Assembly: GCA_016792805.1 (NCBI GenBank) | Contig: JAEUHX010000076.1 | Span: 29,541 to 93,540, forward strand | Origin: Planctomycetota bacterium | Lineage (GTDB): Bacteria > Planctomycetota > UBA1135 > JACQFD01 | Length of the DNA: 64,000 bases | Reading direction: 5' to 3' | Part shown: one piece after another, positions 6,441 to 55,796 of the stretch | Numbering within the stretch: the first letter of the stretch is position 1 | How the letters are laid out: each line of letters starts with the position of its first letter | The notes under the pieces: generated by a model | Database searches by the model: none | Told to the model about the DNA's origin: nothing | The model's input: only the letters and a program-made list of their open reading frames with translations | Position numbers and translations under genes: made by a program

Positions 6441-6468
6441 CCGGTGTGAGCGCGCGTGCGCGCGTGGC

Positions 6469-31797: not shown

Positions 31798-31871
31798 TCG
31801 CGCCAATCGCAGCGCTTGGATTGAAGCGCTTTGCGAATCACACGCAGGCGCATACCCCTTCCTCACTACGG

Positions 31872-32861: not shown

Positions 32862-32867
32862 CCATCC

Positions 32868-36563: not shown

Positions 36564-37427
36564 CTACTCCAAAAGCCTTTTATACACTTCGCGAGTCGCC
36601 GTGCTGCGGTTCAGCGTGTAAAAGTGAACTCCAGGCGCGCCGCGGTCGAGCAGCTCGCGCGCCTGCGCCGTCGCGTGGTCGCAGCCGACGCGGAATACCT
36701 CCACCGGATCGCCCGCACACCGCTCGAGCCGTTTCAGCAGCGGCTCCGGCAGCTTCGCTCCGCACATTTTTGTGAATCGCTGGATCTGCTCCAGGTTCGT
36801 CACCGGCATCAACCCGGGCACGATCGGCACCGTGATTCCTGCCGCGCGCGCGGAATCCACAAATCGGAAATAATCGGCGTTGTCGAAGAAAAGTTGCGTC
36901 ACCAAGAAATCGACGCCGGCGTCGACCTTTATCTTCAAATGGGCGAGGTCGAGCGCGTGGTCGCGGCATTCCACATGCGTCTCGGGGTAGCAGGCGCCGC
37001 CGACGCAGAAATCAAAATTCTCCTCGAGGAATCCGACGAGCTCGCTGGCGTAGCGGAAGCCGCCCTCGACTGCGCGAAAGGCGCTCTCGCCCTTCGGCGG
37101 GTCGCCGCGAAGCGCCAGCACGTTGCGCACTCCCGCGTCGTGGAGCGTCTGCGCGACGGCGGCGAGCTCCTCCTTCGTGTGCCCGACGCAGGTGAGGTGC
37201 GCCATCGCAGTAAGCCCAATTTCGCGCTGAATGCGCGACACGAGCGCAATGGTGCGATCGCGCGTCGAGCCGCCCGCGCCGTAGGTCACCGACACGAAGT
37301 CGGGCCGCAGGCGCCGCAGCTCCTGAATCCGGCCAAAAAGCGCGTCCACCCCGGAGTCGTCCTTCGGCGGAAAGAACTCGAAGGAGAAGACGGGGCGGCC
37401 GAGGTCGAACAGGTCGCGGATGCGCAC
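36564..37427 (-). CDS. metF: 5,10-methylenetetrahydrofolate reductase
   Basis: Motifs are FSFEFFPPK, VTYGAGGSTRDRT, ALRGDPPKG and TQLFFD. I place the start at GTG 37427 (VRIRDLFDL). The remainder of the 500-aa track ORF is an Arg/Gly-rich extension. Confidence 0.9.
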   Translation of the reverse strand: MRIRDLFDLGRPVFSFEFFPPKDDSGVDALFGRIQELRRLRPDFVSVTYGAGGSTRDRTIALVSRIQREIGLTAMAHLTCVGHTKEELAAVAQTLHDAGVRNVLALRGDPPKGESAFRAVEGGFRYASELVGFLEENFDFCVGGACYPETHVECRDHALDLAHLKIKVDAGVDFLVTQLFFDNADYFRFVDSARAAGITVPIVPGLMPVTNLEQIQRFTKMCGAKLPEPLLKRLERCAGDPVEVFRVGCDHATAQARELLDRGAPGVHFYTLNRSTATREVYKRLLE

Positions 37428-37486
37428 GGTGGCCAGAATATCGGCCGAAACCTCGATCCCGCCGTGGCGCGTCGCGGGCGTGGCGG

Positions 37487-39523
37487 TCAGCGCCCACGCG
37501 ACAGGGCCGGATGGCGCGCCAGCTCCTCCGCGGCCAGCGCCGCGCGCGCCGCGTGAGCGGCCGCCCGCGGCAGCCAGCCGCCGGAGTGGAAATCCAGGTC
37601 GCGAGTCGTGGCGCGCCCCGTGTTGAGGAGCGGAGCGGGGGAGATCGCCGCGACGAGCGCCGCCGTCTCGTTCCAACGGGCGACCGCGAGGTGCACGCCC
37701 GCCGATGCGCCCTGGCCGGCTCCGGTGTGGAGGAGCACCGGCACGGCTCCCGTGCCGCGGATGAGATCGCAGAGCGTGCGCAGGTTGCGGCCCAGCGCGA
37801 GACGGCTCGGCTCCGTGATCGTGGGCTCGTCGGGAAGCGGGCGCTGCGCGCTCCGCACCGCGCGCAACGGAACGCCGCAGCGCGATGGGTCGCGCCCCAC
37901 CCGCGGCGGCACCCGATCCCAAGGGAACTGCTCCCCGATCTCGAACGGCTTTCGCGCGTGGGATCCGTCCGTTCGGAACCCAGGCGTCAGGATCGGCAGG
38001 CTGTCCTCGAGGTCGTGGGCGAGGATCACCATGTCGGGCCGAACACTCTCGGCGCGAAGGTGCCACGCGGCGAGCGACTCGGCCGTCGTGTAGCCGGGAA
38101 ATGCAAAGTTCACGACTTCGGCGCCGGCGATGCCCCGGCTGCGAAGCTCCGCTTCGAGGCGCCGCGGGAAGCTCTCCGGCTCAGTGCACAAAAGCCCATA
38201 AGCAGAGGATCCTCCGAGCACCACAATTCGAGGTGCCGCCTTTTCCGCGGCAGGAAGCGGCCCGCGGCCGCCAAGCGAGTTGTGCGGGCCGAGCGTGCCG
38301 GCGGCTGGGCCCGACCGCGGACCATACAAAAGGAACGGGAGCGGTTCGACGGCGGCGCCGCTGCGGAGCGCCTCGGTTTCCACGCACTCCGGCGCCGCAT
38401 CCACAATTGGATCATTCACCCGATCGGGAACGCGAAAGCGCGCGGGCTCCGCGGGCGCGGGCCGCTCGAGAAGTTTCTTTTCCACACACGCTTTTGCGAG
38501 CAGCTCGGCGAACCGCGCCGCGCCCTCGGAAGTGTGGTGAACGGGATCGTCGCCAAAGAAGCTACCCGCCGACGGAAACGATCGGGAAATATCCACCATC
38601 GGTACCTGGTGCGCCTGCGCGAAGCGGCGCGTGCGATCGTTCATCGCCTCCATCTTCTCCTGCCAAGCTTGGCTCAGCGGCCGATAGGTGTGCGGCACGA
38701 GCAGGAGGGCAATTCCACGATAAGTTGCAATGGAATGAACCCCGGTCAGCGCGCGCTCCCACGGGGACGACCCGCCCGAAACCGGCCGGCTCACGGGGCG
38801 CGATGCGGGCCCCGAGAGGCCGCGGTTTCGCTGCGTCCAGTACGACAGGGCCGAGCGGCCCGGCGGAACCAAAAGCGAATCTTGAAGGACTTCCACAAAA
38901 AAGCTCTTTCTGAGCAATCGCTGCGGCGTTGACCACTCGCACTCTTCCTCGGTCCAAACTCTCCGCAGCTCGAGCGGCGAGCTGGCAAGGTGCTCCGCCG
39001 TCAGATCATTGGCGCCGTGGTAGACCACGAGCAAGTCGGGCTCATGGTCGAGCACCTTCAACAAAAGCTGAAAGAACGTCTCCGTGCCCGTGTAGCCCGG
39101 CACACCAAAATTGAGAACCTCAACATTCTTATCCGGCCGCATAGCGCGCAGCCAATCCTCAAGCTGTACCGGATAAGTTTCTTCCTCGCCGAGTGAGGTT
39201 CCAAACGTCGTCGAGCCGCCGAGGCATGCGATGCGAAACACCCCAGCCGGCTTCGCAATGGGGCGATCAAGCCCGCGAAGCCCCATGCGGGACACGCGCT
39301 CTCCCGTGCCCTTTTGTGTATTCGGCGCGAGCTCCCAGACGAGGTAGGGATGGGGGCGGTAGATCGACGGCTTCTCGAGCGCTCCCAGCTCGGCGCCGGC
39401 CCGCCAAGCAATCGCGCGCAGCAGCCCTTCCGCGAGCAGGACGGCGAGCGCGCAGCCGAGAGCCAGCGCGCGCAGGCGCGCAGAGACCCGATGCGTGGGA
39501 ACCCGATGCGTGGGCGTGCCCAT
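37487..39523 (-). CDS. Membrane-anchored protein with two tandem SGNH/GDSL-hydrolase-like domains
   Basis: The N-terminal TM is [19 protein letters not shown]. Block I-like motifs occur twice ([13 protein letters not shown]; [12 protein letters not shown]). A DxxH-like block follows the first domain (GDDPVHHT). Confidence 0.7.
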
Positions 39524-39607
39524 GGGAACCTGTCGGCGCCGTCCCGGTGCGGTGGGTGCGGCGCTCGTGCGCGGAAGATACTCGCGGGTCGGCTCGCCCG
39601 CCCGTGG

Positions 39608-39811
39608 CTACGCCAGCAGATCCAGCAACGTGCCGAGAGTCCGATCGGCCACCTTCACGACGGCGGCGCCGGTCTCCACTTCGAGTTCCGCCACGCGCAG
39701 TTCCACGATCGGCTCGGGCTCGATCTCGCCCGCGGCAAGGCGCTCGGCGGCGCGCGTCATGCGCGTCTCGCCCGCCTGCATCATCGAAAGGCCGATTCCC
39801 GCGATCTCCAT
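39608..39811 (-). CDS. Small hypothetical protein (67 aa), weak YjfB/'putative motility protein'-like pattern
   Basis: The product is [26 protein letters not shown]...[19 protein letters not shown]. Third codon positions are strongly G/C as in neighbouring genes. It lies 84 nt upstream of the SGNH gene on the same strand. I recognise the family by pattern only. Confidence 0.4.
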
Positions 39812-39945
39812 GCTGCCGTTCTCGGCCGGCGTGCGCCGCCGCCGGAGCGGCCGGGCGATCTTTTCCGCAAGCCCTGCGCGCGCTGCGCGGGCTTTCCGAG
39901 CGCCCGGAGCAGTTTCGCCACCGGCTCCTATACTCCGCGCCCCCT

Positions 39946-41493
39946 ATGACGCAGTCGCCCCACGAACGCCTTCAGCACATGCGCCGCGAGTCCGAGATGG
40001 GCGGCGGCCCCGAGCGCATCGAGCAGCAGCACAAGAAAGGGAAGCTGACGGCGCGCGAGCGCGTCGCGTTTCTCTTGGACGACGGCTCGTTCCTCGAGAG
40101 CGACCGATTTGTGACCCACCGCTGCACCGACTTCGGCCTCGACCAGCAGAAGTTCCTCGGCGACGGCGTCGTCACCGGGCACGGCCGCATCGATGGGCGC
40201 CCGGTGTTCGTCTTCGCGCAGGATTTCACCGTGTTCGGCGGCAGCCTCTCGGAGGCCCACGCGGCGAAAATCTGTAAGATTCTCGACCAGGCGATGAAAG
40301 TTGGGGTTCCGGTGATCGGGCTCTGCGATTCCGGCGGCGCGCGCATCCAAGAGGGCGTCGTCTCCCTGGGCGGCTACGCCGACATCTTCCTGCGCAACAC
40401 GCTGGCGTCGGGAGTGGTGCCGCAGATCTCTGCGATCCTCGGGCCTTGCGCGGGCGGCGCCGTCTACTCCCCGGCGCTGACCGATTTCGTGTTCATGGTG
40501 GAGGGCACTTCCTATCTGCACATCACCGGCCCCGACGTGGTGAAGGCGGTGACCCACGAAGATGTAACCTCCGAGCAGCTCGGCGGCTCATCGGTGCACA
40601 TGCAGAAATCGGGCGTGGCTCATTTCGCCGCGCGCGACGACCGGGAGTGCTTGACACAAATCCGAGAGTTGATGTCGTACCTTCCGCTCAATAATGCGGA
40701 GGATCCGCCGGTCATTCCCTGCGAAGACGATCCGCTGCGGCGCGACGCGAAGCTCGATTCGATCGTGCCGGCCGATCCGCAGAAGCCCTACGACATGAAG
40801 GACGTGATCAAGCTCGTCGTCGATCACGGGAAGTTCCTCGAGGTGCAGCGCGATTTCGCGCGCAACATGATTGTCGGATTCGCGCGGCTCGGTGGGCGCT
40901 CCGTTGGGATTATTGCCAATCAGCCCGCCCACCTGGCCGGCTGCCTCGATATCGACGCATCGGTCAAGGGCGGCCGCTTCATCCGCTTCTGTGATGCGTT
41001 CAATATTCCGATCCTGACGTTCGAGGACGTCCCCGGGTTCCTCCCGGGCACACACCAAGAATACGGCGGCATCATCCGGCACGGCGCGAAGCTTCTATAT
41101 GCTTATTGTGAAGCCACCGTTCCGAAGCTCACGGTCATCACGCGCAAAGCCTATGGCGGCGCCTACGACGTGATGGCAAGCAAACACATCCGCGCCGATT
41201 TGAACCTCGCGTGGCCCGGCGCCGAGATCGCCGTCATGGGAGCGGAAGGTGCGGCGAAAATTATCTTTCGCCGGGAGATCCAGTCGGCGTCCGATCCGAA
41301 GGCCGAGGAGGCGCGCAAGATTGCGGAGTACCGCGAGAAGTTCGCCCATCCCTATCACGCGGCCTCGCGCGGCTACATCGACGACGTGATCGAGCCGAGC
41401 GAGACGCGATCGAGGCTCATCGCCGCGCTCGAATTGTTGCGCACGAAGCGCGACCGCAACCCGCCGCGCAAGCACGGGAACATCCCGCTGTAG
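39946..41493 (+). CDS. pccB: Acyl-CoA carboxylase carboxyltransferase subunit (propionyl-CoA carboxylase beta / methylmalonyl-CoA carboxyltransferase-like)
   Basis: I place the start at ATG 39946 ([15 protein letters not shown]). Motifs are [35 protein letters not shown] and [10 protein letters not shown]. The track start at 39193 is an extension. Confidence 0.9.
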
Positions 41494-41521
41494 TGCCGGC
41501 TTTTGTGGTTTCTTTGCGGCG

Positions 41522-42211
41522 ATGTCCGGTATGCCTCGAGCGGCTTGGTGGGCTGCGGCGATCGCAGCGCTGGTGCTCGCGGCGATCTCGCTTTTCGTTT
41601 GGCTCTCGTGGCCGCATCTCCCCGATCCGCTCTCGGCCTCTGAAAGAGCTCGAGAGCTCGGCCGAAACCGGCTGCGCGCGCTGCTGCGGGCCCACGGAGC
41701 CGACGCCAGCGCTTCGGTTTGGCGGGAGACGGAATCGCTGCGGGCGGTTGTTCTGGAGGATGAGTGGAGCCGTAAGCAGCTCTCGGGGGCTCAACTCGTG
41801 CTCTGGCCCGCCTCCGATCGCCTCGTCCTGGGCTCGACCGATACGTTGGCCTTTGAACTTCGCTCCCTCCGCTACCTGGCGTCGCTGCCGTTCAAATTCG
41901 CGGACCCCGGGGTGGTCGTTGCCGAGATGGAGCCGGAGCCTGCCACGGGATATCCGCGGCTGCTGATTGGCTTCGAGCCGAGACCCGGCGCTCCCGAGGG
42001 CGACCGCTATGCCGCCATGATCCACCCGGAGACGGGGCGGCTCGCGGCGCTGGAATACCGCCCCACGGAGGTCTTCTGGCCCGCCGGCGTACGCGTGCGC
42101 TACCGATGGATCGAGGGTCCGCGCGGCCTGCTGCTCCCCGAGTCGATCGTGGCCTACACCGTGCCCTTCGGCCTCAGAACCCACTCGATCCGTCTCCGGA
42201 GCTGGAGGTAA
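41522..42211 (+). CDS. Membrane-anchored hypothetical protein
   Basis: The N-terminal TM is AAWWAAAIAALVLAAISLFVWL, followed by a beta-rich periplasmic part. I recognise no motif. Confidence 0.55.
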   Translation: MSGMPRAAWWAAAIAALVLAAISLFVWLSWPHLPDPLSASERARELGRNRLRALLRAHGADASASVWRETESLRAVVLEDEWSRKQLSGAQLVLWPASDRLVLGSTDTLAFELRSLRYLASLPFKFADPGVVVAEMEPEPATGYPRLLIGFEPRPGAPEGDRYAAMIHPETGRLAALEYRPTEVFWPAGVRVRYRWIEGPRGLLLPESIVAYTVPFGLRTHSIRLRSWR

Positions 42212-42348
42212 CCACCCTCTGGACGGGAGCGCTCCGACGCAGCAGACTTTCCCCTTGCCAGATCGGCGATTCCCGTTGGAGACACCGGGGCGCCCTGGCA
42301 ATCCCCGACCGCCGGCTTTCTCCCGTCGGCAGCCCCCGAACACGAAGG

Positions 42349-45300
42349 ATGGGAAATCACGTGGCACGAGACGCAGCGATCCAGGATCTCGAGCACCAAT
42401 TTTGGGCTTGGCGTTTTGTGGTATTTGGGGCGAAGCTCGGAAAGACTCCGGAGGTGCGTCCCGAAGAGAGCGCCGAGGTTCTCGCGGAGAGATGGTTCAT
42501 CTTGGGGCAGAGCCTGCTCATGGGGCTGGCGCAGTTCATCATTCGCGATGAGCATCTCGCGGAAGAGGCGGTGGCGGATGCGCTGAGGAAGTCCAAGGAA
42601 GCTGCCGAAGGGTTCGACGGCCGGTGTCCTGTCTATTGGTGGCTTCGGAAAATTGTTCGGCGTGCTTCGATCCACCAGGCCAACAAACGGAGCCGTCGAC
42701 AGGACGCGATTCCGTTCGCCGACGCGCCGGTCGAGATCATTGCTGCTGACCGCGATCGATCCTTGGTGAGCGCGGCAGATCTCGAAGCGGCCATTGAGGC
42801 CATTATTGCGAGTCTGCCCGAGAAGCAGGCCACTGCCATTCATCTCCTGCTCTTTCAGGAGATGACCATTTCCGAGATTGCACAATTGCTTGGCGATAAG
42901 TACGATGCGGTCCACTCTCGCGTGTACGAAGCGAAGCTCAAGCTTCGAGATGAGCTCAGGCGCAAGGGGTTTTCGCTTGCGGTGCTTGGGGAGGTTCCGC
43001 TCTTGGCGAATGCGATGCGATCCGTCAAGCCGAGCAGCGAAGCGACTGCGCGGATCGCGGCTTTGGCGCGCGCGCCGATGCGAAGAGGTGTCATCCGTCA
43101 GCCCTGGTTCATGGGCTCCATGGCGGCGGCGTCGGCTGCGGCTCTGCTGGCATCGATCAGTGTGCATGCATGGGCGATCGATGCTTCGGGCGGGTCACAG
43201 AGCATCCGTGGCGACGTATCCCACGAGAATGGAAATCAGCCCACAAATCCAAGTGTCGCAACGATGCCTGGCGTCGGCGGCAAGACGAGCCCGGCGCAGG
43301 CCGTCGCATCCAGCGGCGGCTACGGGGTTTCGGGGCGGATCCTGATGCCGCAATCACAAAACGGAGTGCCCGTGCCGGTCGCGGCCGGAGAAGTCCGCTA
43401 TCGCGACAACGACGGCAATGAACGGCTCCTGGCGGCCATTGTGAACGGCGAGATCGTGTCCGTTTCGGACTTGCCGAAGGGCCTGAAACCGGGGCGGATC
43501 ATTTTCATCGATAGCGCGAAGAGCGCGGCGCGCGTCGAATTTGTAAGGGCGCCAGGCCCCAATACTGAGATTTCACTTTTTCCGGGATGGAATGATCTCG
43601 GCGTGCTGACGCTCGATCCCATTGCTTGGGTGAGTGCAAGTGTGATGTATTCCAATGGCACTCCTGCGCCGGGAATGTACATTGCATTCTCCTCGGATCT
43701 GAAATCTCCCGCGGCGGGGCGTTTCAACGGTACCGTGCGTACAGATGGCGATGGGCACGCACGGTTTGCCGTTCCGGCCGGTGTTCAGACGAAGATTCGC
43801 GTCTACGCAGCCGATTACACCTCTGAGCCTCAGATCATGACTCTGGCTCAGGGCCAAGAAGTGGGAGCGGCTCCGTTCACTCTTCCCGATCTCGTGAAGG
43901 CGAAGTACCGATTCGTGACTCCCGCGGGCGGAAGCATTCATGCGCCGATGCTGCGGAAGAAGTCGGACGGCCTCGTGACGGCGAATCTCCAGGTACAGCC
44001 AAGCTCCGATCCGGAGGTGGTGGAGGTGTTGCGCAAGCCGAATGTCCCGCTTGCGATCGATCTCTGGTTGACGCCGAAGGACTTCGTTGCTGTGACTTTG
44101 CCTCCGCTTTCGGAATCGGTCTCCGAGCCGATTCCCATCGCCGTTGCCGCGGACACTTGGACTGCGAGAATTGCGCGCCCCACGGCTGTGAGCGAAGGCG
44201 AGCTCGTTACAGTTGTTATCCCGGGCGCAGCGCGGCCGATCTTTGAGAAGGAGGTTCCATTCGGAGCTTTCCTCGATCTCTCACTGCCTCGTCCGGAGTC
44301 CGCAAACAGCCCGCTCACGGTCTGGGTCCTCAAGGACGGCCACCCCGTTGGGATCTGGAATTGGACTGTCGCACAAAAAACATGGGCCGAGGGACAGGCC
44401 CCCGCAGAGCTCTCAAAGCCCGAAGTCACCTGGGCGCCTCAGGTTCTCGACGCGGAGGGATCGCCGATTCCCGGCGCGACCGTCGGCGCTCGATTGGGCG
44501 ATCGGACGGTCTATGCGGAGGTCACCAATACCGAAGGACGAGCAACGCTCTCGGCGATTCCGTCGAGCGAGCTCACCTTCTATGTCGTTGCTCCCCAGTA
44601 TGCGCCGTGGATTCTGGAGCCGCCTCATGCGGGATCGAGCCTTCCGGCGACCGTTCCGCTCGCCCGGGTATCGTGGCTCGAGCTGCGACAGCTGAGTGAA
44701 GACCACGGATCGGAAAAGTGGTCTTTCACTCCGCCGGAGGAGATTCTTGAAGGGAATCGGGCGAACGACCGTGGAACGAGGATCTTCCGCGTGCCTACCG
44801 GTGCCGTTGTCAGAATTCCTATTTGGGTTACGGGAGGCCGGTTCGGTCGGGCGCGCCAGTCCGGTCCCCTCGATACCTCGGTGGTCGACTCGATCGATCT
44901 CGCCTTCGTACCGGGGGAGACCATCACGCTCGATCTCACCCAGGGGCTAACGGATGGGGTGGCTTCGATGGTGGCCAGCACGGGCGGGCTCTCTCCCGCC
45001 AATTTGGCGTGGGGCGCATTGTCCACGGACGACAAATTCCTGGCCGTCGGGCGAATTCAGAATGACGGTTCTTTCGACATTCGTGGGTTCGTGGACGGGG
45101 CCGTGGTGGATGTCTTTCCGATGGCTATGGGCGCGCTGAGCCCCGGCTCGAATCCCGAGGAGGTCAGGCGACGCATTGAAGCTCTCCGCGCGAACCCGCT
45201 GACTCGGGAATCCGTTGCCACGATCAAGATCCGAGCGGGAAGGTCGGGACAGTCCGCCGGGAATCCGGTGGGTGTCGATTTCTCGTCCATTGCCGCAACA

Positions 45301-45582
45301 GTTGCACTCCGCCCGGACGCGCTTCTTCCCGGAGAAAGTTTGGATCTGCGCGTCGTGCCCAATGTTTTCTCCTCCGTGAATGAATCGTTCCGAGCTCGTT
45401 ACGAGTTACAAAATGGTGATGAGGTGCAATTGGCGGCGGGCGCTTATGTGGTGAGACTGCGGCTGCAATCGCCACGGGCGATTCCGGGATACACCCTCGT
45501 GTCCCAGCCCGGATTGGCAGGCTCGGCAGTCTTCGAAAGATCGATGGAGGTGAAGCCCGGCGAGCGAATCGAGCTGCCTTAG
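42349..45582 (+). CDS. ECF sigma-factor domain fused to a TM helix and a large extracytoplasmic beta-sandwich repeat region
   Basis: Sigma region 2 is present (DEHLAEEAVADAL...PVYWWLRKIVRRASIHQANKRSRRQ), as is region 4 (LPEKQATAIHLLLFQEMTISEIAQLLGDKYDAVHSRVYEAKLKLRDEL). A hydrophobic helix WFMGSMAAASAAALLASISVHAWA lies at about nt 43104-43172. About 800 aa follow with CarboxypepD_reg-like units (VLDAEGSPIPGATVGARLGDRTVYAEVTNTEGRATL). I place the start at ATG 42349. Confidence 0.7.
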   Translation: MGNHVARDAAIQDLEHQFWAWRFVVFGAKLGKTPEVRPEESAEVLAERWFILGQSLLMGLAQFIIRDEHLAEEAVADALRKSKEAAEGFDGRCPVYWWLRKIVRRASIHQANKRSRRQDAIPFADAPVEIIAADRDRSLVSAADLEAAIEAIIASLPEKQATAIHLLLFQEMTISEIAQLLGDKYDAVHSRVYEAKLKLRDELRRKGFSLAVLGEVPLLANAMRSVKPSSEATARIAALARAPMRRGVIRQPWFMGSMAAASAAALLASISVHAWAIDASGGSQSIRGDVSHENGNQPTNPSVATMPGVGGKTSPAQAVASSGGYGVSGRILMPQSQNGVPVPVAAGEVRYRDNDGNERLLAAIVNGEIVSVSDLPKGLKPGRIIFIDSAKSAARVEFVRAPGPNTEISLFPGWNDLGVLTLDPIAWVSASVMYSNGTPAPGMYIAFSSDLKSPAAGRFNGTVRTDGDGHARFAVPAGVQTKIRVYAADYTSEPQIMTLAQGQEVGAAPFTLPDLVKAKYRFVTPAGGSIHAPMLRKKSDGLVTANLQVQPSSDPEVVEVLRKPNVPLAIDLWLTPKDFVAVTLPPLSESVSEPIPIAVAADTWTARIARPTAVSEGELVTVVIPGAARPIFEKEVPFGAFLDLSLPRPESANSPLTVWVLKDGHPVGIWNWTVAQKTWAEGQAPAELSKPEVTWAPQVLDAEGSPIPGATVGARLGDRTVYAEVTNTEGRATLSAIPSSELTFYVVAPQYAPWILEPPHAGSSLPATVPLARVSWLELRQLSEDHGSEKWSFTPPEEILEGNRANDRGTRIFRVPTGAVVRIPIWVTGGRFGRARQSGPLDTSVVDSIDLAFVPGETITLDLTQGLTDGVASMVASTGGLSPANLAWGALSTDDKFLAVGRIQNDGSFDIRGFVDGAVVDVFPMAMGALSPGSNPEEVRRRIEALRANPLTRESVATIKIRAGRSGQSAGNPVGVDFSSIAATVALRPDALLPGESLDLRVVPNVFSSVNESFRARYELQNGDEVQLAAGAYVVRLRLQSPRAIPGYTLVSQPGLAGSAVFERSMEVKPGERIELP

Positions 45583-45915
45583 CAGAAGCCTTTGGCAAGT
45601 GTCATTCGAGCTGCGCACGCGGGCTTTTTGGCGATCTCATCGTTGGACCGCCTCGCCGAACTCGATGCTGCCTTTCGCGCGCATCGTTGCGATGTCGCGA
45701 TCGAAGAACCTCGAAGCGCTTGATTGCAGTCTGTCCGCAGCCCTCCCCCCACTGAAAGGGGCGGCGATCCAGCCCATCGCCGATCGCCGGTGACGGGACG
45801 CGTTTGGTCTTGGTGTCACGGGCGCCCCGAAGGCACGTGACCTCCCGCGCAGACGAATCCTTCCGATGCGCGTGGAGTTCCCGCACACCGATTCCTCGCA
45901 CATGGAGTTATTGCT

Positions 45916-46461
45916 ATGTCTTCGGTGGTCACTCTTCTCGGCTCGGTCTCTCCGGCAACGGCGAGCGCGATGATCGACGGGCTCGCTCCCAAGCTCGGAT
46001 GGTCAACAAAACCGGAGGATATCCTGGGCGCCAAGCTCTGCCTCGACGAAGCCTCGTTTGTAACCATTTTTTCGGTATTTCCCGTTGCGAACGCGGGCGA
46101 GTTTCCCTCGGTCCTGGCGATCAGCGACTTCGGCCAGATCTATAAGTTCGTCGTTACAGGTGCGAGCGCGTCTCTTCCAACGGGAGAGACTGCAACGATC
46201 GTCTCGGCGAGCTATGGAGTCTCGAAGAAGACCAAACATGTGATCTTTCGCCTGACCACACTGGCGGCCTCTGACGGATCCACGAAGGAGGTCAAGGTGT
46301 GCAAGTGTAAGGATGGGGCGGCGGAGGCGTTGCTCGACGGCGATCCGGTTCTCTGCTACGTGGAATGGGTCTGGGTTCCCTTTCCTCGGCCCCTCTGCCT
46401 CAACGACGAGTGCCCCATCGAATGTCGCTTCCAGGAGTCCATCTGCTCTTGTTCCCAATAA
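45916..46461 (+). CDS. Orphan hypothetical protein with a Cys-rich C-terminus
   Basis: A GGAG lies 8 nt upstream of the ATG. No signal peptide is evident. There are 8 Cys in the last 53 aa (CKCKDG...LCYVEW...PLCLNDECPIECRFQESICSCSQ). The antisense ORF 46003..46554 is Arg-rich and unlikely to be real. Confidence 0.55.
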   Translation: MSSVVTLLGSVSPATASAMIDGLAPKLGWSTKPEDILGAKLCLDEASFVTIFSVFPVANAGEFPSVLAISDFGQIYKFVVTGASASLPTGETATIVSASYGVSKKTKHVIFRLTTLAASDGSTKEVKVCKCKDGAAEALLDGDPVLCYVEWVWVPFPRPLCLNDECPIECRFQESICSCSQ

Positions 46462-46846
46462 TCGTGGCTTCCTAGGTTCCAGGGGCTTCGATCGGGTCTC
46501 GTTGTTCTTCGAGCACGTGGTTGGAGAACCGCTCTCCAGCGGTTCGAAGTTCACTTTTCGCGAGATTGAGGAGAGACGCGTGAGGCGTAGCCAAGGAGTT
46601 TCGTCGATCGCGGCTCGACGGTGAGATTGCGAAGAGGGGACGAGAAGCGCCGGAATGAGTCCTTCAGCGGCCTGCCCGGAATCCGCGAAGGAATCCGTTC
46701 TTGCGTTGGCGGCGAGACGCCATTCGCCGAGCGTCAGCTTCGGCGCCGACGAGACGAGCGAACACTTATCGGACGGCGTCCGGCTTCGAACCGCGGCGCT
46801 TTCCCTTCGAGCGCCAGCTCGGTACGGTCATGGGGAACTGCGCCCC

Positions 46847-48331
46847 ATGTTCCGCAAGGTCCTCATCGCCAATCGCGGCGAAATCGCGCTCCGCGTCATC
46901 CGCACCTGCCGCGAGCTCGGAATTCCCACCGTTGCCGTCTATAGCGACGTCGACCGCAACGCCCTCCACGTCCGCATGGCCGAAGAGGCCGTGCGGATCG
47001 GCGCGGCGCCGCCGAGTCAATCGTATTTGAAGGTGGAGGCGATTCTCGATGCGGCGCGCTCCACCGGTGCGCAGGCGATCCACCCCGGCTACGGCTTTCT
47101 GAGCGAGAAGGCACATTTCGCTGAAGCCGTTGAGCAGGCCGGGCTCACGTTTATCGGGCCGCCATCGACGGCAATGCGGCGCATGGGAGACAAGTTGTCG
47201 TCCCGCACCGCCATGGTGAAGGCTGGCGTTCCGGTCGTTCCCGGGCTCACGGAGCCGGTGGCCGACCTGGACGCTGCCGTTCGGGAGGCGGCCAAGATCG
47301 GCTACCCCGTGGCGCTGAAGGCGGCCGGCGGCGGCGGTGGAAAGGGGATTCGCCGCTGCGCGGATCCGAAGGATCTCCCGTCGGCTTTCCGCACGGCGAG
47401 CGGCGAAGCGCTCTCTGCCTTTGGCGACGGCAGGATCTACATCGAGCGCTATCTCGATCGCCCTCGGCACATCGAGGTGCAGATCGTCGGCGACAAGCAC
47501 GGCAATGTTGTGGCCGTCGGCGAGCGCGAGTGCACGATTCAGCGGCGCCACCAGAAGCTGCTCGAGGAGGCGCCGTCGGTCATTCTCGATGGCGCGTCAC
47601 GCCAGGCGATTCGCGAAGCGGCGGTGAAGGCGGCCAAGGCCGTCGGATACCACAATGCCGGAACTGTGGAATTTCTCTGGAGCGGGGGTCAGTTCTTCTT
47701 CCTTGAGATGAACTGCCGCCTCCAGGTGGAGCACCCGGTGACGGAGATGGTCTACAGCGTCGACCTCGTGCGTGAGCAGCTCCGCGTGGCCGCCGGAGAG
47801 AAGCTCACACTTCGCGACGGCATGGAGCCGCGCGGGCATGCGATCGAAGTGCGCGTGAACGCGGAGGATCCCGACAAAGGATTCCTGCCCTCCATCGGCA
47901 AAGTTGCCAATATTCGGCTGCCCGGAGGACCGTGGGTGCGCGTCGACTCGGGGCTCTACCGCGGATATGAGGTCACGCCCTACTACGACTCGCTTCTCGC
48001 AAAAGTGATCGCTTGGGGAGCTGACCGCGCCCAGGCGATCGCGCGTATGGAGCGGGCGCTGGCGGAGCTGCACGTCGGCGGCGTGAAGACGACGGCGCCG
48101 CTGGCGCTTCGCGTGCTGCGCGATCCGAGCTTTCGCGCGGGAGATTTTGACACTCACTTTTTGGAGACTTTCACACCCCCGCGAAACGCGGAGCGCGAGG
48201 AGGTGGCGGCGCTGGTGGCGGCGGTTCACAGACACCTCGGCACGTCGCGGCAGGCGCTGAAGGCGCGCAGCCAGGGGGCAGCGAGCGGCGGATTGTCGCC
48301 TTGGGTCGCGTCGTGGAGGGTGGGCCGATGA
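46847..48331 (+). CDS. accC: Biotin carboxylase subunit of acetyl/propionyl-CoA carboxylase
   Basis: The start is MFRKVLIANRGEIALRVIRTCRELGI at ATG 46847. Motifs are GGGGKGIR and FLEMNCRLQVEHPVTE. Confidence 0.92.
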   Translation: MFRKVLIANRGEIALRVIRTCRELGIPTVAVYSDVDRNALHVRMAEEAVRIGAAPPSQSYLKVEAILDAARSTGAQAIHPGYGFLSEKAHFAEAVEQAGLTFIGPPSTAMRRMGDKLSSRTAMVKAGVPVVPGLTEPVADLDAAVREAAKIGYPVALKAAGGGGGKGIRRCADPKDLPSAFRTASGEALSAFGDGRIYIERYLDRPRHIEVQIVGDKHGNVVAVGERECTIQRRHQKLLEEAPSVILDGASRQAIREAAVKAAKAVGYHNAGTVEFLWSGGQFFFLEMNCRLQVEHPVTEMVYSVDLVREQLRVAAGEKLTLRDGMEPRGHAIEVRVNAEDPDKGFLPSIGKVANIRLPGGPWVRVDSGLYRGYEVTPYYDSLLAKVIAWGADRAQAIARMERALAELHVGGVKTTAPLALRVLRDPSFRAGDFDTHFLETFTPPRNAEREEVAALVAAVHRHLGTSRQALKARSQGAASGGLSPWVASWRVGR

Positions 48332-48867
48332 AGTATTTTGTGAACGTTGCCGGGCGCGATCTGGAAGTGGTGTTCGAGCAGCGCGGCGACGACGTGTACG
48401 CCCGCGTGGGCGATCGTGAGCACCGCGTCTCGTACTCGGAGGTCGATGGCCTCGGGCAGTACTCGATCCTGGTGGATGGGAAGTCGTGGGCCGCGTCGAT
48501 CGAGGCACCGAAGGGTTCCCACGGGAAGTCCTTGGAAGGGGAGTTCTCGGTCGGGCTCGCGGGTGAGGTTTTTCCGGTGCTCATTGAGAACGAGCGCGAG
48601 CGTGCGGCGCACGCCGCAGAGCGCGGAGGCGGCCGCGGCCCTCGGACGGTTCAAGCGGCGATGCCTGGAATTGTGGTGTCGCTGCTGGTGAAGGAGGGCG
48701 ACGTGGTGGAGGAGGGGGCAGCGCTGCTCGTGCTGGAAGCGATGAAGATGCAGAACGAGGTCCGTGCGGAGGCGGCCGGCCGCGTGGAGAAGATCCATGC
48801 AGAAGCCGGAAAGACGGTGTCGGCCGGGCAGAACCTGGTGACGCTCGGGCCGGTGCCGGAGAAGTAA
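48328..48867 (+). CDS. Biotin carboxyl carrier protein (biotinyl/lipoyl domain)
   Basis: An ATGA overlap with accC lies at 48328-48331. The biotinylation motif is LVLEAMKMQNEV. Confidence 0.85.
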   Translation: MKYFVNVAGRDLEVVFEQRGDDVYARVGDREHRVSYSEVDGLGQYSILVDGKSWAASIEAPKGSHGKSLEGEFSVGLAGEVFPVLIENERERAAHAAERGGGRGPRTVQAAMPGIVVSLLVKEGDVVEEGAALLVLEAMKMQNEVRAEAAGRVEKIHAEAGKTVSAGQNLVTLGPVPEK

Positions 48868-48920
48868 CGAACGCTCGATTGTTGAGAATTTGGCGTGGCC
48901 GACCATGGCGCGCCCGCGGA

Positions 48921-49329
48921 TAGCGAGTCATCACTCGGGAAGAATGGGGCGTGGTCGGTCTTGGCGCGGCAGCGGACAGTCCAAGAGGCCATTCCGGGAT
49001 AAGTTTGATTTGAGCACTCGGGAAGAAAGGGGCGTGGTCGGTCTTGGCGCGACAGCGGACAGTCCTCGACGCTCGGCGGCCCATCGGCTGCGCAGAATCC
49101 GACCGGCGCTTCGCGCCCGTCGGATTCTGCGCGCGCCATGGCCTCGCGTCTGCGGAACTCGCCGCGCCAAGACCGACCCACGCCCCATTCCAAGCCGTCC
49201 CGCATCTGTGAAGCGGATGGGGGGTGCGACCTGGCGCGGCAACATCCCCACAGATTCCTTCGTTGTCGCCGTAGGGCGCGGGCATCGCCCGCGACGATCT
49301 CGCGCGCGCTTGCGCGCGCGGATGAAGAA
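48921..49329. repeat. MITE-like nested-palindrome intergenic repeat, copy 2 (with a duplicated left arm)
   Basis: It has the same blocks as 6469-6918. The left arm is present twice (48933-48995 and 49016-49066). It lacks the hairpin-rich segment of about 145 bp found at 6548-6692 in copy 1. Confidence 0.8.
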
Positions 49330-49395
49330 CCCAGCCACGGCCTCAAGTTCCACAGCCCGATCGCCACCGCGCGGGGCGCGCCCCGCGGAGACTGG

Positions 49396-49563
49396 TCGGC
49401 GCACGCGCCGACTCCACTTCAATAAAATCCTCCTGCGCACGCGCCGACCCCACTTCTACAAAATCGTCGATTCCGCGCGTTGAACTCAGTTCAACAAAGT
49501 CGTCCAGCACACGCGCCTATACCACTTCTTCAAAGTAGTTCAGCGCGTGCGCAGACCCTACGG
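49396..49563. repeat. Degenerate tandem array, period about 36-38 bp (gcgcacgcgccgaccccacttc...), the reverse complement of the 6377-6440 repeat
   Basis: The units are tcggcgcacgcgccgactccacttcaat (49396-49423), ctgcgcacgcgccgaccccacttctac (49434-49460), cagcacacgcgcctataccacttcttc (49505-49531) and a degenerate cagcgcgtgcgcagaccctacgg (49541-49563). A palindrome ttgaactcagttcaa lies at 49480-49494. Confidence 0.7.
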
Positions 49564-49618
49564 ATCGATTGGGAAACGCTCTCGCCGCGGCTTTTATTGC
49601 AACCCCGGCAGCGGTCCG

Positions 49619-50176
49619 CTAGCTGAGGGGTTTCGAGCGGACCCAGTCGCGGAGCTTTGGGAGCGAGCGATCGGTGTATTCGGGTGAGAGTCGCTCGAGG
49701 AGAAAGGTTCGGAAGACTCCGTCGAGCGCCGTCGAGATCTGCTCGTAAGCGGTGACGGTCTCAAGCGCGCGCACATGGGCCTCTTCTTCCTCGCTCTCGG
49801 GGACGGAGCAGGAGCGAAGGGAGAAGGTCTCGGCATCAAAAGTGGTATTCCACTCGCGGTCGGCGTCGGCCACGATGAGCCGCGCGCGCACGAGCCGCTT
49901 GCCGCGCTTCAGGGCCGCTGCGGCCTCCACTCCGGAAAGCGGCCGGCCGTGGCGCAGCGACTGTTCGGGGCGCTTGCCCTCCTCGTCCTCGCGCCGATCG
50001 CGCAGGACGAGCGGGCCGTCGAGCGCGATGCCAACGGATCGCCCGCCGCCGAGGTCGTACTCCGACTCGCCGGCCTCAAAGCGCCACCAAAGCCACGTCA
50101 GGAACTCCTCGCCGAGAAACGCGCGCTCGTCGCGCGCCACCTGCGGCTCGGACTCTTTTGCGGATTTCGGACTCAC
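49619..50176 (-). CDS. RdgC-like protein, C-terminal-half homolog
   Basis: AFLGEEFLTWLWW...KRGKRLVRARLIV...FDAETFSLRS...ALDGVFRTFLLERL aligns by eye with the C-terminal half of RdgC (LTLTEWV...AGKVVTKLAL...RFDADFILM...LIQNLIEGL). The GTG start overlaps the upstream TGA (GTGA at 50173-50176). Confidence 0.55.
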   Translation of the reverse strand: MSPKSAKESEPQVARDERAFLGEEFLTWLWWRFEAGESEYDLGGGRSVGIALDGPLVLRDRREDEEGKRPEQSLRHGRPLSGVEAAAALKRGKRLVRARLIVADADREWNTTFDAETFSLRSCSVPESEEEEAHVRALETVTAYEQISTALDGVFRTFLLERLSPEYTDRSLPKLRDWVRSKPLS

Positions 50177-50823
50177 GCCTCCACCTCCTGCGCGCGGGCC
50201 GATGCCGCGCGCGAACTCCCGACGAGATCGGCCGGGCTGATGTGCGACATTACTTTTCGAAGCGGATCGGGCAGCTTCAATCGCTCGGCGACGATCGACG
50301 GCGTCGCTGGCGCAAGCGACCGCCGGAAGCTCTCGCGGAAATGCCGCGCGACGCGCTCGAGCGTCGCTCCACCTGTTGCAAAAACATACAGAACACCGCG
50401 CCGCGGATTCCAGATGCAGTCGGTGATCGACACCGAGGGCAGCGCGCGCGCCATGAGTTTGCGCTTGGTCTCCTCGAGGATCTCCTTCTTCTGCGCGCGG
50501 CCAAGCGGCTTGCCGCCCGATGCGGCCGCGCGCAGATCGGCCGAGGCGTGAATCCGAAGCAGCGTCGCCGGAACCTTCTTTCGGTCGATGCGCAGCGCGA
50601 AGACGAGGAAGTGCTCCGCGATCACATCTTCCGGCTCGAATCGGGCGCCGCTCAGGTCACCCCGTGTGACCCAGCCGACCGATTCATCGTCGGTGGCGCT
50701 CCCCTCGATCGGCTTGAACCGCTCGCGCTCAAGCGCTTTCAGAAGCGACAAATCGGAGACGTCGGCGGGCTCGCCCTCGACGAAGAAGCGCACAAAGGAG
50801 CCCGAGCGCCGGAATCGATGCAT
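50173..50823 (-). CDS. RdgC-like protein, N-terminal-half homolog
   Basis: RFKPIEGSATDDESVGWV...LVFALRIDRKKVPATLL...KKEILEETKRKLMARALPS...CIWNPRRGVLYVFA...LERVARHFRESF aligns by eye with the RdgC N-terminal half (FTPCG..MGWVPP..VICARKEEKILPSPV..LLPRAF..MMWIDTVNGLIMVD..LALLRKSLG). Confidence 0.6.
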   Translation of the reverse strand: MHRFRRSGSFVRFFVEGEPADVSDLSLLKALERERFKPIEGSATDDESVGWVTRGDLSGARFEPEDVIAEHFLVFALRIDRKKVPATLLRIHASADLRAAASGGKPLGRAQKKEILEETKRKLMARALPSVSITDCIWNPRRGVLYVFATGGATLERVARHFRESFRRSLAPATPSIVAERLKLPDPLRKVMSHISPADLVGSSRAASARAQEVEA

Positions 50824-50928
50824 GGGATGCCGCGGAGTGGAATGACCCTTCGAGCTCGCCTCGAGGGCGTGGCGTTGTACCGCACCGCGGTGGGCGCGCC
50901 AGCCCCCCGGAGAATGGTGACAAATCGG

Positions 50929-51804
50929 TCACCGGCTTGCGCCAGAGGACGCGCCGCGCCAGCGGCCGAGCGACTGTGCGAGACGCAGAAGCGGAGCGAG
51001 CTGCGGGGGGCTGCCGGCGAGGTCGCGCGCCGTGAGCCGTGCTGCTCGCGCGAGCGCGCCGAGGAAGCTGCGCGGACGGCGAATTCCGAAGAGCTGCGCC
51101 TCGATGACGGCGTCGTCGCGGTGGCGCGCGAAATCCCGCGCGAGCCCGCTCTCATGGGAATGGGCAACGACGGCATCGGCGGCGAAGGCGATCCCGTGGC
51201 CCGCTTCGAGCGCGCGCTTTCCCCAGTCGAGATCTTCACCAAAAGGAAGATTACGAAAAGGAAGTTCACGAAAGACGCTCGCTCGGATCGCGGAGGCCAC
51301 ATTATTGAAGTGACAGAAAATCCTCCGGTCCGCGGCGTTCCAAGAGGCGAAGTCGGGATGGTCGGCGAGGCGTTTCACGAGGCGCGCTCGGCCCGCCACG
51401 AGGTCGCGCTCCACGTCGCGGCGCACGAGAGTCGTGGCGTTCTCGTGGGGAACCACGCGGGCGTAGGCGCCGGCGATCGTCGGATCGGCGAGCGGCGCGA
51501 GCAGCGAAGCAACAAATCGATCGCCGACCGGAAGCGCGTCCTGCACCAGAAAAACAACAGCCGTTGCTGTCGTTCCCTCCGCTGCGCGCGTCCGTGTGGC
51601 GCCATGATTGAACTCCGACTTGGCGATGGAGATCACCTGTGCTCCCTCCCGCGCCGCTAGCTCGGGCGTGCCGTCGCTCGACGCCGAATCGATCACCACG
51701 ATCTCGCGAACGATCCCCGCCGGCTGCTGAGCCCGCAGGCGCGCGAGGAGCTCGGCGAGCTGCGCGCCAGCGTTCCAGGTGGGGAGGACGACGCGGGCAT
51801 CCAT
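50929..51804 (-). CDS. Family 2 glycosyltransferase
   Basis: GT-A motifs are VVLPTWNAG...VVIDSASSDGT...FLVQDALP. I place the start at ATG 51804 (MDARVVLP); the track start at 51891 is an alternative. Confidence 0.8.
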   Translation of the reverse strand: MDARVVLPTWNAGAQLAELLARLRAQQPAGIVREIVVIDSASSDGTPELAAREGAQVISIAKSEFNHGATRTRAAEGTTATAVVFLVQDALPVGDRFVASLLAPLADPTIAGAYARVVPHENATTLVRRDVERDLVAGRARLVKRLADHPDFASWNAADRRIFCHFNNVASAIRASVFRELPFRNLPFGEDLDWGKRALEAGHGIAFAADAVVAHSHESGLARDFARHRDDAVIEAQLFGIRRPRSFLGALARAARLTARDLAGSPPQLAPLLRLAQSLGRWRGASSGASR

Positions 51805-51896
51805 CGGCGGCGGTTCTACCCGATCGGGACGGCGCGCCGACGCTCTGTAACCGCCGACCGCTGGGCGCGCGTACGAGGCCATACTCCCCACGCCGC

Positions 51897-52382
51897 GTGG
51901 ACCCCACTCAACGCTTCGAGCAGCTCGCGGAGCTTGCCGGCCCGGTGCTTTCGGCCGTCATACGCCGCTTCGTGCGCGACTCGGGCGCCGCCGAGGAGGT
52001 TCTCCAGGATGTGCTCCTCGAGGTGTGGCGGAGGCTCGACGACCTCGACCCCAAGCGCGACCCCATGCCCTACCTCCGTAAGCTCGCTGTGAGCCGCTCC
52101 ATCGACTGGCTTCGGCGCCGGCCGGGGTTTGCTCTCGATGGCGCGAGCGCCGCCGAGGAACTCGCGGCGCCGGTTCCAGCGGCGACGCGCCTCGAGGCCG
52201 ACCTGAGCGCGCTGCCCGACCACGAGAGGGCCGCGATTTTATTGTATTATCAGGAACAGCACTCGGTCGCCGAGATCGCAACGATTCTGCAGGCGTCGGT
52301 CTCGGCTGTGAAAGTGTGGCTTTTCCGCGCTCGGGCGAAGCTTCGCCCGCAATTCGAGCGCGAGGCGCGAGGATCGAAATGA
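51897..52382 (+). CDS. ECF sigma factor (compact, 161 aa)
   Basis: The start is GTG 51897. Region 2 is present (AEEVLQDVLLEVWRR...YLRKLAVSRSIDWLRRR), as is region 4 (LPDHERAAILLYYQEQHSVAEIATILQASVSAVKVWLFRARAKLR). Confidence 0.85.
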   Translation: MDPTQRFEQLAELAGPVLSAVIRRFVRDSGAAEEVLQDVLLEVWRRLDDLDPKRDPMPYLRKLAVSRSIDWLRRRPGFALDGASAAEELAAPVPAATRLEADLSALPDHERAAILLYYQEQHSVAEIATILQASVSAVKVWLFRARAKLRPQFEREARGSK

Positions 52383-52852
52383 GCGAACTCGGCTCCTCTG
52401 ACTGCGCCCACTGGGCCGCCCTGCTCCGAGGAGAGGGCGAGGACGCCCGCCTCGGATCGGAGGCGGCCGCGGCCCTCAGCGCCCATCTATTGCATTGTGA
52501 GTTTTGTGCTCGAGAACTCGAGGCCGACCGACATCTGTCGCGGGAACTGGCGTCGATCACCATCGAGCCCCTCGACCGTGAGCTCGTTCGCCTCGTCGCG
52601 CGTCGCGTTGCACGCGCTCAGCGCGGGAGCCGGTGGCGGCTCGGGCTCACCCTGGCCGCCGCCGCGCTGGCAATGTCCGTGGCGCTTGATCGCAGCCTTG
52701 CGCCGCGCCGTGAAGCCCTGCCGGTGCGGCCAGCCTCGCCCGCCGTGAAGACAGCCTTCGAGGAGCGCGTGGTGCGCGCCGGCTCCGCGGGTCTGCGCTC
52801 GACTCTCTCTATGTCACGCCGAACTCGTTACTCATCGGGAGTTCAAAGATGA
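52379..52852 (+). CDS. Anti-sigma factor (zf-HC2 type)
   Basis: An ATGA overlap links it to the sigma gene. HLLHCEFC matches H-x3-C-x2-C. There is one TM helix (WRLGLTLAAAALAMSVAL). Confidence 0.8.
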   Translation: MSELGSSDCAHWAALLRGEGEDARLGSEAAAALSAHLLHCEFCARELEADRHLSRELASITIEPLDRELVRLVARRVARAQRGSRWRLGLTLAAAALAMSVALDRSLAPRREALPVRPASPAVKTAFEERVVRAGSAGLRSTLSMSRRTRYSSGVQR

Positions 52853-54207: not shown

Positions 54208-54238
54208 AGCCTGCGCGTGGCACTATGGGGTTCGCTCC

Positions 54239-55546: not shown

Positions 55547-55557
55547 CATCGGAAGCC

Positions 55558-55776: not shown

Positions 55777-55796
55777 CCGATCTCGGGGGTGAACCC

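Follow-up and report, generated by a model that had tools for sequence, protein, structure and literature searches.

We analyzed a 64,000-nucleotide stretch of DNA from a bacterium of the Planctomycetota (hereafter the window: positions 29,541 to 93,540 of the forward strand of contig JAEUHX010000076.1, assembly GCA_016792805.1), in which the carboxyltransferase (CT) gene of an acyl-CoA carboxylase is separated from the biotin carboxylase (BC) and biotinyl carrier (BCCP) genes by a block of 5,353 bp (~5.35 kb) holding three unrelated genes. They encode a protein with a transmembrane (TM) anchor, here called TMhyp, a long protein in which a predicted extracytoplasmic function (ECF) sigma factor is fused to a sensor-like extension, and a Cys-rich protein. 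The most noteworthy result is that the block is a sharply bounded island of divergence, nucleotide identity to the nearest relative dropping from ~97% to ~77% at the CT stop codon and recovering at the BC start. The explanation that we consider probable, though by no means assured, is that the block constitutes a three-gene module for envelope sensing, old and specific to its lineage, which was inserted at the CT/BC junction of a contiguous operon and has been inherited since, and which either evolves fast or is exchanged by recombination.

Gene order in near and distant relatives

A CT scan of GTDB species genomes gave 80 loci at no more than 71% identity, 67 of them informative. BC lay within 300 bp downstream of CT at 25 of the 67, 0.6 to 8.3 kb away at 11 and upstream of CT at 2, and a further 29 had no BC in at least 5 kb downstream; the 11 separated loci mean that an interrupted CT-BC order is not unusual. 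Homologs of the three block genes were absent from all 80 CT loci. At the closest of these, the outgroup L001 (Planctomycetota; BC 64% identical), the gap between CT and BC is 15 bp.

Graded relatives were located via BC homologs, their contigs were read, and identities were taken by tblastn. In three JGI assemblies (L085, L086, and L087; amino acid identity of 99% for CT and 98% for BC), a GDSL-lipase gene, CT, the 229-residue protein, the fusion, the 181-residue protein, BC, and BCCP follow one another in the order of the window, and the Logan contig L084 (C terminus of CT 99% identical, BC off the contig) has that order as far as it extends. The flank proteins of L084 and of L085 to L087 are 94 to 99.5% identical to those of the window. 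The next-nearest relatives, L088, L090, and L094 (BC 77 to 79%), have MTHFR-CT-BC-BCCP and no block, the CT-BC spacer measuring 61 bp in L094 and 26 to 30 bp in the other two. Judging by these gene orders, CT-BC-BCCP contiguity is very probably ancestral on the level of the phylum and the block a derived interruption; the three genes of the block, for their part, are confined to this small lineage.

A more distant trace of the module is found in L089 (BC 77%), where a 1,053-residue sigma/TM/CarboxypepD_reg fusion (P0125) lies 112 bp upstream of BC. P0125 is 23% identical to the window fusion over 550 residues (E = 4e-19), and its TM segment is in the same position. A neighbor-joining tree of BC plus BCCP, (L001,(L095,(L089,((window,L085),(L088,L094,L092,L091,L090))))), with supports of 76 to 86%, makes L089 the earliest branch of the clade; its fusion, with the same sigma-TM-Ig (immunoglobulin-like) layout, is the one homolog of the window fusion that could be detected. 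L095 (BC 68%) has no CT upstream. Because L084 to L087 share the order and L089 holds a fusion homolog by BC, we regard the block as inherited rather than recent; a sigma fusion upstream of BC is, on the evidence of these contigs, old within the clade.

A first-pass annotation, made from the sequence of the window without database searches, had suggested that the block was an insertion into an ancestral carboxylase operon and thus an accessory islet. The insertion is supported by the CT-BC distances of 15 to 61 bp in L001, L088, L090, and L094. A recent or mobile islet, in turn, is contradicted by L084 to L087, which share all three orthologs, their order, and the 28-bp spacer between CT and TMhyp (of equal length in L084 and L085), and by the lack of mobility genes. 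The annotation had held that relatives with the same interrupted order and orthologs of all the intervening genes would speak against its proposal: both are found in the nearest relative, and they are not found in the next-nearest ones (L088, L090, and L094).

The CT/BC junction, like the MTHFR/CT junction and that between BCCP and a 185-residue gene (h185), has gathered different cargo in different lineages. In L092 (C terminus of CT 92%, BC 79%) six genes with no relation to those of the block fill the ~7.5 kb from CT to BC (positions 467 to 7807: proteins of 414 and 417 aa, a DUF2059 protein, a minus-strand methyltransferase, a 652-aa protein, and a Tricorn/PD40-like protein of 395 aa), and in L091 (BC 77%) unrelated genes stand upstream of BC, with no CT within 10 kb. 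The syntenic backbone consists of MTHFR, CT, BC, BCCP, the 185-aa gene, RdgC, GT2, and GT4, with lineage-specific cargo at several junctions. A 678-aa GDSL-lipase gene between MTHFR and CT (window region 36564 to 39523) is missing from L088, L090, and L094, and between it and CT L085 has ~865 bp more (2137 to 3041), with a 202-aa minus-strand open reading frame (ORF), than the window (39524 to 39957), which lacks it. Between BCCP and the 185-aa gene, where the window has only repeats (48868 to 49618), a HEAT-repeat gene is found in L088, L090, and L094, joined in L088 and L094 by one for a multihaem cytochrome.

A sharply bounded island of divergence

Compared with L085, the flanks of the window are ~90 to 97% identical at the nucleotide level overall and the block 65 to 79% (Table 1). 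The excess is equally clear at neutral sites, at which the block is 2 to 8 times more diverged than its surroundings and, in the sensor domain of the fusion, near saturation; Fisher tests of the block against the flanks gave 6e-58 (left) and 2e-17 (BC plus BCCP). The two fusion alleles are 58% identical in amino acid sequence, with 1,077 residues aligned and not one insertion or deletion. This indel-free alignment and dN/dS ratios of 0.11 to 0.28 show that the three block genes are real genes under purifying selection, and on the same grounds we rejected pseudogenization or relaxed constraint as the cause of the divergence.

Table 1. Divergence of the window from L085. dS and dN/dS are Nei-Gojobori estimates; fourfold-site divergence was counted solely in codons encoding the same amino acid in both.
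Region	Nucleotide identity	dS	dN/dS	Fourfold-site divergence
GDSL-lipase gene		0.16	0.197	
CT	~96-100% (alignment profile; gene overall 96.5%)	0.14	0.030	0.10
CT and GDSL-lipase gene (left flank, 37428-41493)				0.10-0.125
From CT stop onward	~77%			
TMhyp	70-83%	0.72	0.18	0.44
Sigma fusion	70-83% (sigma domain); 48-65% (extracytoplasmic two-thirds)	1.19	0.28	0.54; 0.6-0.75 in C-terminal half
First intergenic gap (333 bp)	24-45%, large indels			
Cys-rich gene	~76%	1.43	0.11	0.54
From BC start onward	86-97%			
BC	92%	0.37	0.025	0.25
BCCP		0.47	0.029	
Most other flank genes		0.2-0.45	0.006-0.18	
Right-flank genes (46847-58283)				0.16-0.28

Conserved flanks that enclose homologous but far more divergent content are what marks a replacement-type hypervariable locus. 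The block could then be a variable cassette, for which CT and BC serve as homology arms, so that versions of the module, no module, or other cargo are exchanged, with diversifying or balancing selection acting on the surface-exposed sensor. We regard this as a possibility to be taken seriously, although it is clearly the less likely account. It would explain why the steps in identity are sharp and fall at gene borders and why neutral-site divergence is raised 2- to 5-fold over that of the flanks and reaches saturation in the extracytoplasmic domain. The left and right flanks also differ from each other (0.10 to 0.125 versus 0.16 to 0.28 at fourfold sites), which suggests a recombination mosaic reaching beyond the block; L092 has other cargo at the same junction and L091 unrelated genes upstream of BC; and, if the module is older than L088, L090, and L094, recombination would restore their tight junction more easily than a precise deletion would. 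Against it, only two allele types are at hand, from different samples, and a constant rate effect fits equally well, since the closer pair L084 and L085 (96.9% identical overall) shows the same excess of block over flank, in the same ranking: CT tail 99.4%, N-terminal sigma part 99.2%, TMhyp 97.7%, C-terminal part of the fusion 96.6%, and Cys-rich gene 95.2%. The nearby genes h157 and h398 are elevated, too, without an obvious cassette structure. A more specific version, in which the CT/BC junction is a fixed site where divergent sensor cassettes are swapped, lost, or replaced through the carboxylase homology arms, the alleles are ancient and kept under diversifying selection, and a 126-nucleotide element upstream of BC is a new promoter or leader of BC-BCCP, seems to us somewhat less likely still.

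The hypothetical genes h157 and h398 (52379 to 54207; 157 and 398 aa) have no Pfam match, and the gene immediately before them codes for a plain ECF sigma factor (51897 to 52382). They form a second peak of divergence from L085, with amino acid identities of 75 to 80%, fourfold-site divergence of 0.38 to 0.39 (neighbors 0.16 to 0.28), and dS of 0.57 and 0.70. It may be a general trait of this genome that putative sensor or anti-sigma partners diverge rapidly.

The predicted sigma fusion and its two small neighbors

The central protein of the block (NCBI MBL8696248.1, annotated there as 1,073 aa) matches TIGR02937 over residues 61 to 203 with 52.8 bits (cut-off 42.9) and Sigma70_r4_2 with 32.2 (cut-off 25.7); its score against Sigma70_r2, 18.2, is under the cut-off of 24, and Pfam gave no match to sigma regions 3 and 1. 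This combination, sigma2 and sigma4 without sigma3 or sigma1.1, is the one by which ECF (group 4) sigma factors are recognized. The sigma domain is divergent, its best match to a plain ECF factor having an E value of 4e-12, and it is followed by an extension of ~870 residues. The sole hydrophobic segment of the protein (residues 254 to 277) comes after a linker of ~45 residues and is predicted to form one TM helix, beyond which ~800 residues would be extracytoplasmic: a low-complexity linker and then a beta-rich array of the Ig-like/CarboxypepD_reg type, with a CarboxypepD_reg match at residues 698 to 755. Because the extension would thus comprise a single-pass TM helix and ~800 extracytoplasmic residues, the sigma domain is predicted to be membrane-tethered, and the topology as read from the sequence is that of a sigma factor joined to its own transmembrane sensor.

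When 1.84e9 representative proteins were searched exhaustively with HMMER, P0125 alone matched the fusion beyond its sigma domain; a metagenome scan with the fusion alignment returned a single match (26%), which lay in the sigma domain and is irrelevant. BLASTP found no match between the C-terminal part of the fusion and the CarboxypepD_reg proteins encoded elsewhere in the window (30 to 34.6 kb), and paralogy with these was rejected. Among the neighboring proteins, Pfam and NCBIfam detected no anti-sigma domain; TMhyp and the Cys-rich protein are uncharacterized and could serve in that role.

TMhyp has a single strong TM segment at residues 8 to 30 (KD19 2.39), and the only homologs found were its own record (JNJ88_19280) and the L084-type ortholog, 78% identical. 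Its AlphaFold2 model is poor (pLDDT 40), with confidence in the TM helix alone and ~11 strands predicted with low confidence. TMhyp may be a partner or a target of the fusion. In the Cys-rich protein, neither a TM segment nor a clear signal peptide is seen. It is 77 to 80% identical to its orthologs in L084 and L085, its N-terminal 120 residues being ~95% conserved, and eight of its nine cysteines are invariant in them (C129, C131, C147, C161, C166, C170, C177, and C179), all in the C-terminal third of the protein. It is probably soluble or cytoplasmic and metal-binding, and toward the fusion it may act as partner or target, or possibly as a soluble anti-sigma factor; its model, too, is poor (pLDDT 42). 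Neither small protein has a match in Pfam, NCBIfam, PADLOC, PHROGs, or PDB sequences, and no defense-system, phage, plasmid, or viral signals or PDB sequence relatives were found for the module proteins.

Intergenic DNA and the relation to the carboxylase genes

Within the 385-bp gap upstream of BC, an island of 126 nucleotides (46535 to 46660) is 86.5% identical to L084 and L085, whereas its surroundings are 47 to 76% identical; it occurs only in the lineages of the window and of L084/L085. It can be folded as a long imperfect hairpin (minimum free energy, -56.4 kcal/mol; z = -2.1; 6 of 200 shuffles as good), and no compensatory changes in the hairpin were seen among the three sequences. The island is a candidate promoter or leader of BC-BCCP, or it could encode a small RNA. 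A scan of the block for sigma-70 promoters and terminators gave nothing over the expectation from shuffled sequence, no 10-mer was both common to the block's intergenic regions and kept in L085, and the single GAAC..GTC match sits in a stretch missing from L085.

These data bear on the idea that the sigma fusion regulates the carboxylase through a sigma-dependent BC-BCCP promoter in the 385-bp gap, so that expression would have been rewired to an envelope signal. A sigma fusion recurs immediately before BC in L089, and the 126-nucleotide island is conserved above the rest of the block; both fit such a link, as would the need of BC-BCCP, once uncoupled from CT, for a promoter of its own or for read-through. 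However, no ECF-like -35/-10 motif was found in the island or in common among the intergenic regions of the block, and relatives without the module retain the same carboxylase genes, and we therefore consider this regulation improbable. The carboxylase genes are neighbors of the module and probably not its functional partners, position being the only link found between them.

Composition, signs of mobility, and gene layout

The G+C content of the block is 62.15%, against a mean of 65.25% (standard deviation, 2.15) for windows of the same size, 6% of which are at or below the value of the block; its tetranucleotide distance is in the 10% tail. G+C at third codon positions (GC3) is 0.68 in the fusion, 0.71 in the Cys-rich gene, and 0.80, a typical value, in TMhyp, the neighbors having 0.75 to 0.84. 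Other genes for exported proteins in the window, namely, those for the CarboxypepD_reg proteins at 30.1 to 34.6 kb and for peptidases and an FG-GAP protein at 11 to 18.8 kb, are equally low or lower (G+C of 0.59 to 0.62, GC3 of 0.62 to 0.73), and the 1-kb bin with the least G+C in the window (57.9%, at 31 to 32 kb) is outside the block; for these two reasons, there is no compositional evidence of foreign origin. The composition of the block is ordinary for the genome. The lowest-G+C stretch, 30067 to 34574, has GC3 of 0.62 to 0.68; its products are two CarboxypepD_reg proteins and a hypothetical protein of 355 aa.

No tRNA or tmRNA gene was found in the 64-kb window and no match to Rfam families; direct or inverted repeats at the borders of the block were limited to short, imperfect matches at chance level, and 41.2 to 47.1 kb contains no long direct repeat. 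No mobility gene within ~10 kb was seen among the genes and Pfam domains called in the syntenic L085 or in Pfam searches of the block proteins, and the viral contigs and plasmids searched held no relatives of the block. Hypermutation by a diversity-generating retroelement was rejected as well: there is no reverse transcriptase domain in the block or its neighbors and no template repeat, and the divergence from L085 covers the whole 5.3 kb, intergenic DNA included.

A recent horizontal acquisition, in which a foreign 5.3-kb segment was newly inserted into the operon of this strain, is very unlikely, even though the G+C content 3 points under the window mean, the GC3 of the fusion and the Cys-rich gene, the lack of the block in relatives with 77 to 79% BC identity, and the orphan status of its genes might all be taken to favor it. 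The composition stays within the range of the window and resembles that of other exported-protein genes, TMhyp having typical GC3; mobility genes, tRNA genes, direct repeats, and viral or plasmid relatives are all missing; and the three orthologs are present in a relative that has diverged to ~90% nucleotide identity in the flanks and 65 to 79% in the block. The finding of L085 already largely refutes this reading.

Several readings of the first-pass annotation concern these points. That the block is lower in G+C is numerically true, as are the counts of about 52 to 53% for two 60-nucleotide lines (51.7% at 43621 to 43680 and 53.3% at 46141 to 46200), and the remark that integrase, tRNA, and border repeats are lacking was borne out by the tRNA scan, the repeat search, and the L085 gene calls. 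As a sign of atypical origin, however, the G+C content is weak, being within the normal range of the window: the composition and codon statistics, now computed, place its G+C content at the 6th percentile of same-size windows, and other exported-protein genes match it in G+C and GC3. The short direct repeats that the annotation thought worth looking for at the borders came to chance-level matches only. The layout had been read correctly throughout (Table 2): the end of CT (its TAG stop codon occupies 41491 to 41493), the start of BC on the same strand, the ATGA overlap of BC and BCCP, which can be read directly in the sequence, and the succession of TM-anchored gene, sigma fusion, 333-bp gap, Cys-rich gene, and 385-bp gap.

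Table 2. Features of the carboxylase locus and the block, in coordinates of the window.
Feature	Coordinates	Strand	Remarks
CT, carboxyltransferase (PccB/MmdA-type)	39946-41493	+	Carboxyl_trans E 5.6e-205; TIGR01117 835 bits; conserved left flank
CT/TMhyp spacer, 28 bp	41494-41521		Left edge of divergence island
TMhyp, 229 aa	41522-42211	+	Predicted N-terminal TM anchor and beta-rich extracytoplasmic part; lineage-restricted
Sigma fusion, 1,077 aa	42349-45582	+	Predicted ECF sigma / single TM / ~800-aa extracytoplasmic beta-sandwich
Intergenic gap, 333 bp	45583-45915		Least conserved part of block
Cys-rich gene, 181 aa	45916-46461	+	MBL8696249.1, JNJ88_19290
Gap upstream of BC, 385 bp	46462-46846		Holds conserved island 46535-46660 and window-specific stretch 46657-46790
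BC, biotin carboxylase	46847-48331	+	Biotin_carb_N, CPSase_L_D2, and Biotin_carb_C all match; conserved right flank
BCCP-like biotinyl carrier	48328-48867	+	Biotin_lipoyl E 1.7e-19; EAMKM motif in translation

All three carboxylase domain types (carboxyltransferase, biotin carboxylase, and biotinyl carrier) are present in the cluster. Looked up as exact sequences, neither the BC protein of the window nor protein P0001 had a record. The CT start, giving 515 aa, was taken from the JGI call in L085. BC could be extended N-terminally from an ATG at 46655 (a 558-aa ORF), which the ~130 nucleotides at 46657 to 46790, absent from L085, place in frame with BC in the window; because the extension is out of frame in L085, it was rejected, and the start is most likely at 46847. 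An assembly chimera is unlikely: for the other allele, four assemblies made independently agree in gene order, and a further four Logan contigs, up to 23 kb long, carry the fusion in the version of the window. Three Logan contigs from different runs (L081 to L083) are 100% identical to the window and all begin at 45614, just past the stop codon of the fusion, and end at 46597 to 46830, before BC; these breaks at the inner borders of the block could reflect strain-level variation in those samples.

The 751 bp after BCCP (48868 to 49618) are noncoding and rich in repeats: a 58-nucleotide direct repeat (48932/49015, 91%) with an inverted copy near 49161 to 49190, a 29-nucleotide palindrome (49081 to 49141), and four tandem 36-nucleotide units (49399 to 49542). 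This composite repeat has a second copy at 6377 to 6918 (81 to 92% identity) and is kept in L085 (12197 to 12736), and it looks like a dispersed intergenic repeat element.

Proposed mechanism and its weighing

In the history that we propose, the module would have been inserted at the CT/BC junction in a small clade of the Planctomycetota, and the lineage of the window would have inherited it. Its core would be a transmembrane signaling protein made as one polypeptide, flanked by the TM-anchored beta-rich protein and the soluble Cys-rich protein. The extracytoplasmic array would sense an envelope or extracellular ligand, whereupon the tethered sigma domain would be activated, most plausibly by regulated proteolytic release, and the two small proteins would act as partners or targets. 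The divergence would arise either because the module evolves several times faster than its neighbors or because divergent versions have been swapped by homologous recombination through CT and BC. A signaling function is inferred for the module.

Several points weigh against this account of an inherited signaling module. The signaling mechanism is drawn from domain architecture; no promoter, ECF-type motif, or protease was identified for the module, and the lack of a shared -35/-10 motif noted above counts here as well; and the models of the two small proteins (pLDDT 40 to 42) are unusable. In L089, the contig extends just 160 bp beyond the fusion gene on the upstream side, short of any position that CT might have. 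On the neighbor-joining tree, with its supports of only 76 to 86%, one gain plus one loss and two independent gains are equally parsimonious; we favor a single gain because the protein family of the fusion is unique. Finally, there are only two allele types, so that acceleration of the rate cannot be separated from recombination.

If the inherited module is the right account, an operon split by odd genes need not mean a recent islet; here, it would be an old, inherited, lineage-private signaling module. The fusion offers a clean example of a predicted membrane-tethered ECF sigma factor, in a family with two detectable branches in 1.84 billion representative proteins. The divergence island could be used as a strain or species marker, and it could provide a test case in uncultured Planctomycetota for rate acceleration versus recombinational exchange of alleles. 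The practical value is limited, and no long-standing question is opened.

Comparison with known systems

Loci for O-antigen and capsule, like the replacement flexible islands known from marine bacteria, are flexible or replacement genomic islands between conserved core genes. The block resembles them in its conserved flanks, its fixed position, its homologous-but-divergent or different content, its envelope-related cargo, and its lack of mobility genes. Unlike them, it is small (three genes), has two allele types, and appears to encode a signaling module rather than glycan synthesis. Recombinational exchange is a candidate process here. As a carboxylase locus, the window agrees with CT-BC-BCCP clusters of the PccB/AccC/BCCP type in its three genes, their order, and their shared strand, with BC and BCCP translationally coupled; it differs in that 5.35 kb lie between CT and BC, compared with 26 to 61 bp in the nearest contiguous relatives.

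ECF sigma factors with long, poorly conserved C-terminal extensions are documented in Planctomycetes, and such extensions are the second most common mode of ECF regulation (PMC7671368, PMC7826278). The fusion shares with these factors (Pinto and da Fonseca, 2020, PMC7671368; Casas-Pastor et al., 2021, PMC7826278) the possession of sigma2 and sigma4 only and of a long C-terminal fusion, and it comes from the phylum of the extended Planctomycetes ECFs; no neighboring protein has a recognizable anti-sigma domain. As in known extended ECFs, the extension is far less conserved than the sigma core: L084 and L085 are 99.2% identical in the N-terminal sigma part and 96.6% in the C-terminal part, and fourfold-site divergence between the window and L085 is 0.33 to 0.46 in the sigma core and 0.6 to 0.75 in the extension. 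It differs in that the extension is predicted to consist of a TM helix and ~800 extracytoplasmic residues, more like a sigma/anti-sigma fusion, whereas extension groups described in the ECF classification are SnoaL-like, TPR, or Cys-rich or have 5 to 7 TM helices. The locus thus extends two known kinds, the lineage-specific ECF sigma factor with a C-terminal extension and the variable locus between conserved core genes.

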